DNA of 64,000 bases from a phage. The stretch's first letter is position 1. Every line of letters begins with the position of its first letter. The stretch is from assembly GCA_027262695.1 (NCBI GenBank), contig GCA_027262695.1_4722.1. One strand, written 5' to 3'. Positions 1,921-49,914 of the stretch are shown one piece after another. The notes under the pieces are model-generated. The model saw only the letters and a program-made list of their open reading frames with translations. It searched no databases and was not told where the DNA came from. A program made the translations under genes and the position numbers.

Positions 1921-3222
1921 TTAACTGATATAGAGTTCGGGATCATAAGGCGCAAGCGAAACGCTGGCGTTATGCATCGCTTTCATCATTGTGTTCATGA
2001 AGACGTTGTTCACGCCGGTAATTTCCGCCCCGATCGCATCCGGGGTTGGAGCCATCGCATTACCGCAACAGGTAGCACAGTATTCCAACGGACCTGCTTT
2101 ACAACGCTGTGGGTCACGTAACTTGATGGTTTGTCCTTCCAGTGAAGCTAACAGCTCTGCATCGATGAGCTTAAGCGCAGCACCATCGATCATGTAACGA
2201 CCTACCAACAACTTGTCTTTGATGTGGTCGCGGTTTACCGTAAACAGAATATGTTCTTGAGTACCACAATCATCCATCGTGATTTTCAGGTTCTGTGTTG
2301 CACGTTGTGATTCTTTAGCGGTTTGTCCTGCTAAAGCGGTTAACGCACCACGCGAGAACGAACCTGCACGTGCGCTGTTGTTATATTCAGCCCAGTGGTC
2401 AACACGCATACCTTCAGCCAGGCTATGCGTAATCACGTTACGTTTACCTGGATCGACGAAGTCAGCTTCAACCCCCATCATGATGTGCGTTTTCTTTCGA
2501 GTATTACCGAAACTCTTGCCGGGGTTAATATAGAACCCTTCTGATTCATCACCCTTAAAGGATTCCTTATCCATTTTGGTTAGCGTGGCTTCGAGTTTGA
2601 TCAGTTCTTCAGGTGTGAATTTACCTTCTTCCTGTAGACGTGCCAGCTCTTTATCACGATAGGCGATAATGTCGTCATCAACTGTTAATGCTTTATCGCT
2701 CATTGATGGAACAATCAAACGATTAATCGCGGTTAACGCACTGATGTTGTTGGTGAATTTCTTCACTTCGCTTGCATACAGCGGACCGATCGGACGTTCA
2801 TTAGGATCGGGAATCCCCTCTTCAGGATCGTCAGCGACACGTGGCGCAATCAACGCTTCCAACGTACCGCTGGTTAACCGTCCTGCTTGATACTCGATCT
2901 GTATCCCAAAAGCGTCATAAAGAACGTACATATTAAACAGCGCTTCACCGAACGTGGTGGTGGTTGTGTTCTTAACCGATGGAAGATCGCCAGGTGCTAA
3001 TTCAAGAGGCTCCCAGAAGTTAAGCAGAGGTTTTGTCGGTTCGGTTTCCCATTGATGTTCTTCACCGTCGATGGTTACGGTAACGATGTTACCTTGACGA
3101 CGAAGTTTTGGTTGATATTTCTCAGCACCGCCTTCAGTAAAAGCGAAAGCATCGTTTATCCATTCAAGATAACGGTAATGTCCCTCACGCAACGCGTAAA
3201 GGAAATAGTCGCGAGGTGTCAT
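1921..3222 (-). CDS. hypothetical protein (possible virion protein)
   Basis: 433-aa ORF tightly packed with flanking minus-strand genes; no recognisable motif. Confidence 0.55.
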   Translation of the reverse strand: MTPRDYFLYALREGHYRYLEWINDAFAFTEGGAEKYQPKLRRQGNIVTVTIDGEEHQWETEPTKPLLNFWEPLELAPGDLPSVKNTTTTTFGEALFNMYVLYDAFGIQIEYQAGRLTSGTLEALIAPRVADDPEEGIPDPNERPIGPLYASEVKKFTNNISALTAINRLIVPSMSDKALTVDDDIIAYRDKELARLQEEGKFTPEELIKLEATLTKMDKESFKGDESEGFYINPGKSFGNTRKKTHIMMGVEADFVDPGKRNVITHSLAEGMRVDHWAEYNNSARAGSFSRGALTALAGQTAKESQRATQNLKITMDDCGTQEHILFTVNRDHIKDKLLVGRYMIDGAALKLIDAELLASLEGQTIKLRDPQRCKAGPLEYCATCCGNAMAPTPDAIGAEITGVNNVFMNTMMKAMHNASVSLAPYDPELYIS

Positions 3223-3233
3223 GTAACAGCTCC

Positions 3234-4112
3234 TTAACCCTGGGCAGGATCGCCGTGACGTGAGACGAATTCGGATAACGCACGTAGCGCTTCTTTTGAT
3301 TCTTCAGCCATCGGGAAGTTTGTCGTAATAAGCTCACGCAAGATAGGAAGGACGGCAGTATCATCGAGATCCGACGCCAGTGCGAACGCGATCAGCTCTT
3401 GCGTGTATTCATACGGTTGTTGTCGTATCGCCGCAAGCTGTCCACGGCATTGCGTCATCAGTAAGTCAAGGGTGACACCAACCGTACCACCTTCTTCGAT
3501 GTATTGCTTAAAGACAGGTGGATACATACCATCCAAAACACGAATACGTCGACGGATGTTTTCAGGAATATGGACGTTTTCCTCATCGGTAAGATTCTCG
3601 CTGTCTTTCTCCAGCTTCTTGGTTAATACTTGCTGAATGCGTGGAAGCAAGCTGGAGTGCACGAAACCGATAAGCTGTATCACGTTTGTGGTGCCGGTGC
3701 CGTAAATATGACGTGCGCATTCGGCCAGCGCTTCAGATGCGGTGTAATCTTCATCTTCAACGATCGCCAACAGTAACGCGGTATCATCATGGGTTTCAAG
3801 GTCCAGCAACGTGGATGCCAACGCATGAAGATATTTCAAGCTGTCTAATGATAAATGCCCTTCGTTCACCCGAATACCAAAGGCCAGCAATTGCTGTTTG
3901 TAAAGTTCGATGCAACCGTTGGTTAAAATGATGTCTAACTCATTTAGGTCGTATTGTTCATCAGCACCGGATAACATCGTATTGCAGAATGTTTCCAGTT
4001 GTTCACATTTAAAATCTTGGTAAAGACGATGCATGCAGTGCTGTAACAGTGTGTGCCTTGTTTCAGGGATTTTACCTTCTAACAAGGCCAAGACGGAATC
4101 AATCATATCCAC
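3234..4112 (-). CDS. hypothetical protein
   Basis: 292-aa ORF; first gene of the leftward unit after the divergent region 4113-4202. Confidence 0.5.
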   Translation of the reverse strand: MDMIDSVLALLEGKIPETRHTLLQHCMHRLYQDFKCEQLETFCNTMLSGADEQYDLNELDIILTNGCIELYKQQLLAFGIRVNEGHLSLDSLKYLHALASTLLDLETHDDTALLLAIVEDEDYTASEALAECARHIYGTGTTNVIQLIGFVHSSLLPRIQQVLTKKLEKDSENLTDEENVHIPENIRRRIRVLDGMYPPVFKQYIEEGGTVGVTLDLLMTQCRGQLAAIRQQPYEYTQELIAFALASDLDDTAVLPILRELITTNFPMAEESKEALRALSEFVSRHGDPAQG

Positions 4113-47450: not shown

Positions 47451-47744
47451 TCAGTGCAATTGTTTCTTAAACCCAGCATTAAGGAGCTGGGTTCTTTCAT
47501 CGATAGTATCCAACGTGGTCAATAACAACCTGCGTTGTTCTTTCGTCAACATCTCTCCTTTAAGACGCTGTTCTATTTCTATCTTCAGTAGCATCGGCAT
47601 CGTTTGCGATAGCACGCTATCCGCTTCTATCTCGTAATTATCTTCCGGCGTGGGTAATACATCACTAACACCGACAAGATAATGGCCGATAACGGTCCGT
47701 CGTCTTTCCATTGCCTCCAGCAGTTCGCTGCTCACTTCATCCAC
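47451..47744 (-). CDS. hypothetical protein
   Basis: 97-aa ORF. Confidence 0.45.
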   Translation of the reverse strand: MDEVSSELLEAMERRRTVIGHYLVGVSDVLPTPEDNYEIEADSVLSQTMPMLLKIEIEQRLKGEMLTKEQRRLLLTTLDTIDERTQLLNAGFKKQLH

Positions 47745-47756
47745 GATTATCCTCCT

Positions 47757-47782
47757 TTAAGGGCGAGGTACCTCGCCCTTAA
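47757..47782. repeat. 26-bp perfect palindrome immediately downstream of thyA
   Basis: ttaagggcgaggtacctcgcccttaa. Confidence 0.8.
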
Positions 47783-47787
47783 GATCT

Positions 47788-48084
47788 TTATACCGCTACT
47801 TGTGCTTTAATAGCAGGGTGTGATTGATATCCGACGAACACGAAGTCTTCGTAACGGTAATCCGTGATACTCTCTGGTTTCCGCACAATTTTCAGTTTTG
47901 GTAACGGATACGGCTCACGACTAAGTTGTTCTTTAACCTGTTCGAAGTGGTTATGGTAGATGTGACAATCTCCACCTGTCCACACGAACTCCCCAACGTC
48001 CATATTCAGCTGTTGGGCGATCATGTGTGTCAACAGCGAATATGATGCGATGTTGAACGGAACACCTAAAAATACGTCAGCACT
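47788..48084 (-). CDS. thyA: thymidylate synthase, exon 2
   Basis: Encodes [25 protein letters not shown]...[39 protein letters not shown], the conserved ThyA C-terminal part. Confidence 0.85.
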
Positions 48085-49191
48085 CATTCTGTTCAGATAA
48101 GGTCGTTAGTCTTATCCCGTTATGTTAACCGCTGTAGATTATCTCTACAGTTCGGACTATATCACGATCTCCTTCCCTGGAGACCCCTCCCGTTTCACAC
48201 CCACTTGGGCGTTACGCTACTCATCACTATTTTCATTCATCCGTTTAGTGCTTTCGCTAGTCTCTGGGCATTCTTCTACAAGTCTGTACGATTCAAATTT
48301 GGGATTTTTACTGCCTAATCGATAAAGTATCGTTGCCGGAACAACGCCTAACTGCCGAGCCGCTTCAGTTAGAGAGACGTACTCGATTCCATCGATTTCC
48401 ACTTTACGTGCGTTAAGTGGAATATTCCCTCTATTCCTTTCGGCGATGAGACGGCGCGTTTCTTCGCTATGATGTCGACCATAGAACGGATTCCTTTCTC
48501 CGGTTCTGGTTTTCGCAAACTCCGACATCTTTCGACGTGTTTCGTCACTGACTTTTACCCCTAAACGTCTCGCTCTGGATGCAGCAATATTCTCAGGAGT
48601 ACACACTTTTTGTCGAATGAGTTCACGTGTTTCAGGCGTATGTGTTCGACCATACATCCCGTTACGTTCACCGGGTTTTCCGTACACTATACGACGCTCC
48701 TCTGCTGTTAAGGATGCGTTTCTTTTGTTAACAGCATAAGCTATCTTATCGATTATTTTGTCACGGTCTGGGTTTCTGGTGAGGTTGTCTCCGCCTACGA
48801 CACCCAACCCAATATTAAGCAAAGCTTCATTCGGTAGACAGTCAATGAACTTCTGCTCTAAAGCATATGCTTCTTCACGAGAAGCGCATTCATCGACCGT
48901 AACCGAGATAAAGCAGCCCTTATTATAGGCATTTTGTAATCGACTGTTTCGATGAACACCGCGACGCAAATTCGATTTGTGATCCACTAAGCGTTGCTTT
49001 AAATTGTTGGTACTACCAACATAGACATCACCATCTTGGGTACATAACCGATATACTACTGGTTTTTTCATACTGCCTCCTTTATAAGAGAGACAGACAT
49101 GTAGAAGGTTAGCAACGGATTAGCCCGTAGGCTTTCCCGTTTTAAGGAGGTTATTCGACGTAGCTCACGCTACGAAGGCGCAGTTGCATTT
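48085..49191 (-). mobile_element. group I-type intron in thyA carrying a homing endonuclease gene (boundaries inferred)
   Basis: ThyA frame broken after QLYQR (codon CGU ending at 49192) and resumed at SADVFLG (48084); intron last nucleotide G at 48085; internal GIY-YIG ORF. Confidence 0.7.
48217..49071 (-). CDS. GIY-YIG homing endonuclease (I-TevI-like) with NUMOD-type repeats and C-terminal HTH
   Basis: 284 aa; VVYRL...DVYVGSTNNLKQRLVDHKS...NSRLQNAYNK GIY-YIG motifs; repeated G.HTPETRELI and GRHHSEETRRLI modules. Confidence 0.8.
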   Translation of the reverse strand: MKKPVVYRLCTQDGDVYVGSTNNLKQRLVDHKSNLRRGVHRNSRLQNAYNKGCFISVTVDECASREEAYALEQKFIDCLPNEALLNIGLGVVGGDNLTRNPDRDKIIDKIAYAVNKRNASLTAEERRIVYGKPGERNGMYGRTHTPETRELIRQKVCTPENIAASRARRLGVKVSDETRRKMSEFAKTRTGERNPFYGRHHSEETRRLIAERNRGNIPLNARKVEIDGIEYVSLTEAARQLGVVPATILYRLGSKNPKFESYRLVEECPETSESTKRMNENSDE

Positions 49192-49914
49192 ACGCTGATA
49201 AAGCTGACACGACAGTGCGCGCGTAGGTACGTTATGCGCATTCAACCAGAGTTCGGTTTCGCTCTGTTTAACGTCGTCAGTAACCCATCGTGCCCTTAGC
49301 GCATCGTTACGGTGGACGTAATAAACACGTTCGTCGATGGTGAGCTCGTGAGTGTAGAACTGATAGAAACTATGGCATGCGGGAAGCGCCATATCGTCTA
49401 AATCGCCTACGTTCCATGCACTAACGATAATCCGCCGAGAATCAGGATCTTCTTTGAGTTGACGCATCACGTTTGCAATTTGGTCATGGTGTTTAACATA
49501 CAAGAGATGTTTGACCATACCGTCGTTAACAATACCGCAATACTCATAACCACGTTGCATCAAAGTACGGGTACGTTCTGTATCATGCGGAACAACCACT
49601 TTGTAGTCAATCCATTCTCGCCATTGTCTGCCGTAAATCGGTCCTAGATTCCCTTCCTTATCAGCCCACTCATTCCAGATGCGAACACCATTATCCTGAA
49701 GATAAGCAACGTTTGTGTCGCCGTTAAGAAACCAGAGCAGTTCGTGGATAACGCTCTTAAGGTGAATCTTCTTAGTGGTTACCAGCGGGAATCCTTTCTT
49801 CAAGTCAAAACGCATTTGACGCCCGAATACCGAACGGGTACCGGTACCTGTACGATCGGCCTTATCGCGACCGTTATCCATGATGTCTTGCAAAAGGTCC
49901 AAATACTGTTTCAT
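49192..49914 (-). CDS. thyA: thymidylate synthase, exon 1
   Basis: [38 protein letters not shown]... closely matches ThyA N-terminus; [14 protein letters not shown] and catalytic-Cys motif [11 protein letters not shown] present. Confidence 0.9.

Follow-up and report, generated by a model that had tools for sequence, protein, structure and literature searches.

A putative mobile group I intron with a GIY-YIG endonuclease gene in the thyA gene of a Goslar-like jumbo phage

What interrupts the thymidylate synthase gene thyA in a 64,000-nt stretch of phage DNA (contig GCA_027262695.1_4722.1 of assembly GCA_027262695.1), and does the interruption still function? On the minus strand of this stretch, which as a whole is called the window here, the ThyA frame breaks off inside the active-site segment QLYQR|SADVFLG and resumes 1107 nt farther on, past an open reading frame (ORF) for a GIY-YIG endonuclease. 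Our comparisons make it very probable that the insert is a mobile group I intron of subgroup IA2 (td/beta22 type), which interrupts thyA between an arginine and a serine codon (the Arg|Ser site). An earlier note on this DNA had read the locus as thyA split by a group I intron with a GIY-YIG gene, and this reading is now borne out by an intron-less relative, by covariation in the intron core, by homology to the td and beta22 introns and by the domains of the ORF.

The interrupted thyA gene

The locus comprises the following parts, with coordinates from the ORF list and the sequence:

49192..49914, minus strand: thyA exon 1, 241 codons, ending ...CAG CGU with U as its last base
48085..49191, minus strand: predicted group I intron (IA2, td/beta22-like), 1107 nt, AAAUGC...GAAUG, with the terminal G at 48085
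48217..49071, minus strand: 284-aa ORF with GIY-YIG, NUMOD3 and helix-turn-helix parts, placed in the P6a loop of the intron
47788..48084, minus strand: thyA exon 2, 98 codons plus stop, starting AGU GCU GAC (SAD)

The C-terminal residues encoded by exon 1 are ...LSCQLYQR, the last base being 49192 (U in the RNA); past it, the frame runs through eight unrelated codons of the insert and reaches a UGA at 49167..49165. Joined together, the two exons give 1020 nt and a ThyA of 339 aa, which aligns without gaps to the product of the uninterrupted thyA of Escherichia phage Goslar (NC_048170 gp141), with 93% identity at the amino acid and 87.5% at the nucleotide level. A 17-kb stretch adjoining the locus is 82% identical to Goslar across 90% of its length. 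Exon 1 is colinear with residues 1-241 of Goslar ThyA, in whose gene the 1107-nt insert is not found, and the Pfam model Thymidylat_synt is matched from position 1 to 171 in exon 1 and from 169 to 266 in exon 2. Since the Goslar gene is colinear and uninterrupted, the boundaries of the insert are fixed to ≤1 nt, and by the rules of group I splicing only the choice with U at the exon end and G at the insert end fits. The exon coordinates and the length of the gap that the earlier note had derived from the sequence are thus exact, as are its U at 49192 and G at 48085, and the ligation that it proposed restores QLYQR/SADVFLG in agreement with the intron-less relative.

The exon 1 and exon 2 frames are intact in all intron carriers, and the three-part arrangement recurs at the same codon boundary in many independent contigs, so that it cannot be due to chance. 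Conserved active-site regions of nucleotide-metabolism genes are known in general to attract inteins and group II introns as well as elements of this kind. Nevertheless, an intein or a group II intron can be dismissed here, because the insert is out of frame with a stop after eight codons, its ORF has its own start and ribosome-binding site, Pfam detects neither a Hint/intein nor a reverse-transcriptase domain, no group II model of Rfam matches even at E≤10, and a group I core is positively identified (see below).

ThyA itself varies in length among these phages. Exon 1 of the window and the corresponding part of Goslar ThyA are ~70 residues longer than the Pfam model (244 residues span positions 1-171), and the extra residues, at ~100-150 and ~190-235 (window 49165-49914), are lineage-specific insertions. 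In the carrier L011 (626-1882), exon 1 encodes 418 aa, including an extra segment of ~170 aa (…CYDINAHNYRWYGALNVFVCERWH…) that has no Pfam match; large and differing exon 1 insertions are also present in L012 (300 aa) and L027 (388 aa).

The fold of the insert

In order to examine the fold of the insert, we used an alignment of ORF-deleted cores (A3), comprising the window, seven relatives, the ORF-less family member L021, the thy intron of Bacillus phage beta22 and the td intron of the T4-like phage RB3 (11 sequences); the ORFs were deleted in silico and the P6a loop was swapped for GAAA. The group I pairings asked of the insert, that is the P1-P9 elements, are present and are backed by covariation in this alignment. 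The predicted helices are:

49178..49195, minus strand: P1, pairing the exon sequence GCGU (49195..49192) with the guide GCGC (49181..49178); the pair at the 5' splice site is a U.G wobble
49187..49182, minus strand: P10 guide (GC)AACU, pairing with the start of exon 2 as AGU/ACU (+GC/GC)
49159..49174, minus strand: P2 hairpin CGUAGC-GUGA-GCUACG, whose GNRA loop holds the in-frame stop UGA (49167..49165)
49145..49150, minus strand: P3 5' strand CCUCCU, with its partner GGGAGG at 48191..48186
49114..49141, minus strand: P4 (AACGGG/UCCGUU) enclosing P5 (AGCC-UACG-GGCU)
49100..49113, minus strand: P6 (GC) and the P6a 5' strand CUUCUACA, with their partners UGUAGAAG..GC at 48280..48268, in the 3' end of the ORF
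48258..48262, minus strand: P7 5' strand GACUA, with its partner UAGUC at 48159..48155; forms the pseudoknot with P3 and is the G-binding helix
48257..48216, minus strand: extended P7.1, which includes the ORF stop UAG (48219..48217)
48211..48198, minus strand: P7.2, CGCCC-AAGU-GGGUG, between P7 and P3'
48166..48185, minus strand: P8 hairpin GGUCUCC-AGGGAA-GGAGAUC, with 6/7 pairs compensatory
48150..48132, minus strand: P9, within the P9-P9.2 region (48095..48150)
48129..48119, minus strand: P9.1
48117..48095, minus strand: P9.2, with the conserved loop CUAACGA

Run unguided on A3, RNAalifold predicted P1, P2, P3, P4, P7.2, P8, P9, P9.1 and P9.2, with compensatory changes at 38 of the 55 pairs. 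When P6, the P7 pseudoknot and P10 were added, the set comprised 63 pairs (P1, P10, P2-P4, P6, P7, P7.2, P8 and P9-P9.2) and 97.2% of cells were paired, compared to only 35-44% in slid controls, in which the partners were shifted by 1-3 columns. Double-sided changes were observed at 40 of the 63 pairs, and none of 500 shuffles matched the alignment in any measure. The minimum free energy (MFE) fold of the ORF-deleted window core alone recovered P2, P3, P4, P5, P6a, P7.2, P8, P9 and P9.2, with a z of -4.4.

The splice sites are covered by this covariation. The U.G pair at the 5' splice site is found in 11/11 aligned introns, the first base of the intron covaries with its partner (A-U vs U-A), and two pairs of P10 are compensatory across the intron family. 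Moreover, the guide covaries with the serine codon at the start of exon 2, reading AGU/ACU in the window, UCUUG/CAAGA in L010 and UCA/UGA in Deinococcus.

Within the core, all six pairs of P2 are compensatory with 100% of cells paired, P4 has 97% of cells paired with 3 compensatory pairs, 5/6 pairs of P7.2 are compensatory, and the P9-P9.2 region shows compensatory changes at 13/18 pairs with 100% of cells paired. P7 is likewise paired in 100% of cells and has the same sequence as in td and beta22; one of its pairs is compensatory, C-G replacing U-A in L011 and L021. More generally, P7 (GACUA/UAGUC), J3/4 and P4 are identical to both of these introns, as is most of J8/7 (GAUAUAGUC), and the 3' 85 nt of the intron are ~77% identical to T4-like td introns. 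The centroid fold contains the inner helix of P7.1 (CACUA/UAGUG), and this helix covaries with CGAU/AUCG of L006. The extra helices P7.1 and P7.2 are typical of subgroup IA.

P5 and P6a were excluded from the pair count, because MAFFT had aligned them out of structural register, and were read sequence by sequence. P5 was found by this check and in the single-sequence MFE fold. For P6a, every member forms a helix of 5-13 bp flanking the ORF (8/8 pairs in the window and 11/11, 10/10, 8/8, 6/6, 12/13, 9/9 and 5/5 in the others), and the sequence of this helix differs in most members, being identical only among three Goslar-like intron-carrying alleles. Taken together, the pairings, their covariation and the shared core provide strong evidence that the insert is a functional IA2-type ribozyme, as far as this can be read from sequence.

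Some observations weigh against this assignment. P1 has just four exon base pairs; translation of exon 1 enters the guide and P2 over eight codons, which could disturb folding if ribosomes follow closely; P5 and P6a rest on the reading of single sequences, both having been misplaced by the alignment; and, on the side of the protein, the match to the Pfam family I-TevI_DNA-bd stays below its cut-off (23.3 vs 27 bits). The Rfam results belong here as well. The whole window gave no Rfam match at the gathering threshold, and none at E≤1 either, and a local scan with the group I model RF00028 gave two part-matches of 17.0 and 17.3 bits, against a cut-off of 50, which cover P4-P6 (49141..49072) and P7/P3'/P8/P9 (48425..48132). 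As a control, the T4-type td intron of RB3, which also has its ORF in P6a, was not matched by RF00028 at threshold either, and the model was passed by homologues with the ORF outside P6a, namely beta22 (84.5 bits), L018 (65.3 bits) and the phiKZ-like L027 (69.4 bits). We thus attribute the miss in the window to the 819-nt ORF insertion in the P6a loop and not to a missing core. However, the compact, ORF-less L021 also fails RF00028, even at E≤0.001, so that the model is insensitive to the td/beta22 subgroup and gives no positive call for the window sequence.

From this fold, splicing would proceed as follows. The exon end GCGU would pair with the guide GCGC to form P1 with the U.G wobble at the splice site, and the core P3-P8, with its P3/P7 pseudoknot, would fold while the endonuclease ORF protrudes from P6a as a loop. 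P7 would bind a free guanosine, which would attack after U49192; the terminal G48085 would then take the same P7 site and exon 1 would attack the 3' splice site, aligned by P10 (AGU..GC with GC.ACU), yielding the mRNA for the 339-aa ThyA.

The remaining structural signals of the window are few. No tRNA genes and no other Rfam match (E≤1) were found in 1-64000, the intron being the only structured-RNA signal. Directly 3' of the thyA stop lies a perfect 12-bp GC-rich hairpin, AAGGGCGAGG-UACC-CCUCGCCCUU (47756-47783); beyond it, on the minus strand, the next gene (GTG at 47744) has its ribosome-binding site. This hairpin was flagged as terminator-like by the scan, on the plus strand only; sigma-70 promoter and terminator counts in that scan were no higher than in shuffled sequence.

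The endonuclease gene and its insertion site

The 284-aa ORF had been described in the earlier note as a GIY-YIG protein with NUMOD-like repeats, and both families are found above their Pfam cut-offs: GIY-YIG (PF01541) with 49.1 bits (7e-13; cut-off 22.6) and NUMOD3 in two stretches with 64.4 bits (9e-18). PDB matches were obtained to 1i3j and 1mk0, the former, the DNA-binding domain of I-TevI, being matched by the C-terminal helix-turn-helix part at 2e-9 across residues 179-254. The catalytic residues of the GIY-YIG domain (Y7, Y17, R27, H31, H40, E72 and N86) are invariant among the relatives, and most of them are also shared with I-TevI, to which the endonuclease is 27% identical. No cysteine aligns to the CKCG...CSKC linker segment of I-TevI, and the zinc finger is thus absent; I-BmoI is likewise a GIY-YIG/NUMOD endonuclease without a zinc finger (PMC5009752). 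In addition, the C-terminal helix-turn-helix shares 70% identity with the ORF remnant of the beta22 intron, over the final 37 residues that can be aligned. By sequence, the enzyme appears closer to the I-BmoI/beta22 lineage than to I-TevI. One CNNNG motif, CACTG, is found 22-26 nt upstream of the insertion point; a remote cut there, of the I-TevI kind, was considered and set aside, given the lack of a zinc-finger ruler and the I-BmoI-like character of the enzyme.

Between diverged carriers the ORF is 78-84% identical, and the ratio of nonsynonymous to synonymous divergence (dN/dS) is 0.11-0.25 at a dS of 0.6-0.8, which indicates a working protein. In the same carrier pairs, the non-coding ribozyme parts (250 nt flanking the ORF) are 95-98% identical. 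The endonuclease ORF thus looks intact and under purifying selection. Upstream of it, a hairpin pairing the Shine-Dalgarno sequence with an upstream segment is predicted:

49073..49096, minus strand: hairpin of the Shine-Dalgarno AAGGAGG with upstream CUGUCUCU, in MFE folds

The hairpin appears in the MFE folds of the window, L003, L006 and L012, with differing sequences, at a z of just -1.1 to -2.3; tentatively, it may serve translational control, recalling the delayed translation of I-TevI.

This conservation bears on the possibility that thyA is simply split, a free-standing endonuclease gene having landed inside it without any splicing, so that the fragments either assemble or the gene is dead. 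A 99-aa ORF starting from the AUG at 48087..48085 covers exon 2, public annotations of relatives give two 'thymidylate synthase' coding sequences around a 'homing endonuclease', and the bacterial host has, as a general rule, its own thyA, so that the phage copy might be dispensable. Yet this AUG is not kept in the family, being replaced by UUG in L006, GUG in L016 and L021, CCG in L011, GCG in beta22 and GAG in L027, and no Shine-Dalgarno sequence precedes it. Moreover, the non-coding flanks are conserved to the degree given above while synonymous sites in the ORF are near saturation, these flanks form the covarying group I core, and the exon frames remain intact in every carrier. We therefore regard a split gene as extremely improbable.

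It is also unlikely, to a high degree, that the element is a decayed group I intron, with a dead ribozyme or endonuclease, fixed as a relic in a thyA that is a pseudogene or poorly expressed. Decay is common in such introns, as the 40-codon ORF remnant in beta22 illustrates; in the window J6/7 reads CAGA where most relatives have CAAC, and the last 19 codons of the ORF overlap P6a', P6', P7 and P7.1, that is, the tail of the coding sequence runs into the core. Against this, the window has the same core invariants (most of J8/7, and P7, J3/4 and P4) as td and beta22, and each of the helices can pair within its own sequence. The ORF, moreover, is of full length and shows the low dN/dS reported above, and the architecture is retained in several diverged carriers. 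The preferred reading remains a group I intron with a working ribozyme and a working endonuclease.

We then compared the insertion site with those of known introns. The window junction lies at Arg|Ser, YQR|SAD (E. coli R166|S167). In RB3, the td junction lies after DVFLG (ggt|taattgagg...ataatg|cta), and the window junction is 21 nt, or seven codons, upstream of it. In the beta22 record (L31962), the junctions GUCCGU|UAAUUAG...AAGCG|AGUAAU, with exon 2 starting SNDMGLGNPFN, are at a position identical to that of the window. The earlier note had drawn a parallel to td and I-TevI at an apparently equivalent site: the parallel stands as regards the gene, the td-type ribozyme and the GIY-YIG ORF, and the site is a different one.

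The site of the Bacillus mojavensis thyA intron can be placed from the literature. I-BmoI has a critical G at -2 from its insertion site (PMC3161791), whose homologue in I-TevI is the G of the CAACG motif (PMC5009752); cleavage by I-TevI takes place 23/25 nt upstream of the site of the td intron (PMC2988022), and its homologous G lies 23 nt upstream of this site (PMC2988022, PMC5009752). This puts the I-BmoI and td sites 21 nt apart, that is at Arg|Ser, and we infer that the B. mojavensis intron occupies the same site as the window intron. The healed window site would read CAGCGT|AGTGCTGACGTATTTTTAGGTGTT, in which the G at -2 is kept (CAGCG|T).

Set beside the T4/RB3 td intron and I-TevI, the window element shares the thymidylate synthase gene, the ribozyme subgroup with P7.1 and P7.2, the placement of the ORF in the P6a loop and a GIY-YIG enzyme whose C-terminal DNA-binding domain is of the I-TevI type. 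It differs in that the td intron of T4 is inserted after FLG and that of the window after YQR, in that the I-TevI ORF stops in J6/7 whereas the window ORF goes 19 codons past P6 into P7/P7.1, in the zinc finger carried by the linker of I-TevI, and in the host, T-even phages on one side and a nucleus-forming jumbo phage on the other.

The intron of beta22, reportedly described by Bechhofer, Hue and Shub in 1994, shares the Arg|Ser site and a homologous core that aligns throughout. In contrast to the window intron, it has 392 nt, is found in a phage of a Gram-positive host and holds only the ORF remnant (40 codons), in the P8 loop. The B. mojavensis thyA intron, set beside the window by literature only, shares a GIY-YIG/NUMOD enzyme without a zinc finger and, by the comparison above, the site; the I-BmoI ORF lies at a different intron position than the I-TevI ORF (PMC5009752), hence not in P6a, unlike that of the window. 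The element thus joins the site and endonuclease lineage of beta22 and I-BmoI with a td-like placement of the ORF in P6a.

The phiKZ-like Pseudomonas phages (e.g. OP310983), which are nucleus-forming jumbo phages as well, share the Arg|Ser site, the intron family (the RF00028 score of 69.4 bits given above for L027) and the endonuclease family (~45% identity), and differ in the place of the ORF, which comes after a compact core and lies in the loop of P9.1. In OP310983 (L027, Phikzvirus, 2362-3452), three coding sequences are annotated, for thymidylate synthase, homing endonuclease and thymidylate synthase, and no intron.

Relatives, recoded target sites and mobility

Proteins 45-87% identical to the endonuclease were all found between two ThyA fragments, on phage-sized contigs; a search of IMG/VR with the endonuclease as a single protein returned no relative. 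The 24-nt core motif GAATAACCTCYYTAAAACGGGAAA retrieved more copies, including L018, with the ORF downstream of P9, and L021 (JACCEA012578902.1, reverse strand), a family member of 330 nt that occupies the same site and has no ORF. The same motif gave nothing among GTDB genome representatives. A scan with a smaller alignment (A5) added a copy from Deinococcus: in the chromosome of Deinococcus sp. VB343 and in a Deinococcus metagenome-assembled genome (L028/L029, ~1852-2966), thyA holds an intron of the same family with the ORF in P6a, an exon 2 start of UCAGCC and the guide GGCUUGA. All copies lie at one place, ...(C/U)GU | intron ...G | AGU or UCN, and the Arg|Ser register is common to 10 or more relatives. 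In the literature searched, we found no description of a thyA intron in Goslar-like or phiKZ-like phages.

A database entry named 'GIY-YIG nuclease family protein [Escherichia coli O157]', encoded by a contig of 248 kb, is 100% identical to the endonuclease, and the genome of the window phage is apparently present, unrecognised, in a bacterial genome assembly. A close relative is found in the Salmonella enterica assembly GCA_015324645.

The same endonuclease lineage is found in three loops (P6a, P8 and P9.1) of homologous introns at one site, which suggests that the ORF was relocated repeatedly within a single ribozyme lineage or re-invaded it. The presence of the intron also varies at short range. 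L003, an intron-carrying 237-kb contig from a Salmonella assembly, is 96% identical over 1400 nt upstream of thyA to Goslar, which is intron-less, showing that the intron is polymorphic among very close relatives.

We compared the exons of six alleles, three with and three without the intron. In the first 27 bases of exon 2, the three carriers show 0-2 differences among themselves, whereas each pair of a carrier and a non-carrier differs at 13-17 of the 27 (binomial P ~6e-7 to 5e-16 vs the rest of the gene); between any two of the three non-carriers, 9-10 of the 27 bases differ (P 2e-3 to 4e-6). At the site itself, carriers read CGT|AGT and intron-less alleles AGA or CGA followed by TCA or TCG, the arginine and serine codon families being switched. 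The intron-less proteins read MLLAR|SQDTVLGT in Goslar, MLTAR|SQDALLGT in L026 and QLYQR|SCDTVLGK in L025 (thyA nt 690-750 in L025 and L026; 3880-3940 in L001, which is Goslar), and the SPN3US-like phages of Salmonella and E. coli (~222-kb) have FYMMR|SNDYLLGA. These substitutions hit a near-invariant segment of ThyA, QLYQRS.D.FLG.PFN, and the recoded patch often takes in 30 nt upstream of the site as well. Together with the polymorphic presence of the intron, this clustering of exon differences at the insertion site is an indirect sign of mobility.

The recoded patch coincides with the predicted binding site, where an enzyme like I-BmoI would bind. Either the flanks of the carriers were acquired by co-conversion with the intron, or resistant sites were selected in non-carriers, or both; one reading of the recoding is selection for cleavage-resistant homing sites. 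In the mechanism that we consider, translation of the endonuclease would start from a ribosome-binding site of its own within the P6a loop. On the model of I-BmoI, the protein would use its C-terminal domain to bind ~30 bp at the start of exon 2 in those thyA alleles of co-infecting relatives that lack the intron. It would cut near the insertion site, and repair from the intron copy would transfer the intron together with flanking exon sequence. Splicing, cleavage and the position of the cut are all inferred.

A functional precedent for what the element could do exists among the chimalliviruses: the intron endonuclease gp210 of phage PhiPA3 handicaps an intron-less competitor (Birkholz et al. 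2024, PMC11620839). It is an intron endonuclease of a chimallivirus, as that of the window would be, and it differs in being an HNH nickase, in residing in an RNA-polymerase gene and in its unrelated sequence and target. Goslar is by experiment a nucleus-forming chimallivirus (review PMC13282480). By analogy with gp210, the window endonuclease could, in one reading, act as a weapon of interference competition, for which it would first have to be imported into the nucleus of the rival phage. As a tentative proposal, which we hold to be somewhat less likely than not, the intron may be a party to a conflict that is still going on between nucleus-forming jumbo phages of enterobacteria, combined with relocation of the ORF, or its re-invasion, among the loops.

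These results leave the element in its classic category, that of mobile group I introns that reside in phage thyA genes and encode a GIY-YIG homing endonuclease. For annotation, the locus encodes one ThyA of 339 aa and not two fragments, and the same correction applies to many records of Goslar-like, phiKZ-like and other jumbo phages. Introns make wide use of the Arg|Ser site, which was known first from Bacillus phage beta22 and is occupied as well in jumbo phages of Gram-negative hosts and in a Deinococcus chromosome.

What lends the element interest is that it resides in a jumbo phage, that its ORF is relocated and that intron-less relatives have recoded target sites. In T4, ribosomes that translate td aid the splicing of its intron; where transcription takes place within the protein wall of a phage nucleus, the intron would have to splice without ribosomes and the endonuclease would have to be re-imported. 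The relatives with and without the intron, with their divergent target sites, offer a natural system for the study of homing-endonuclease competition and escape of the target site.

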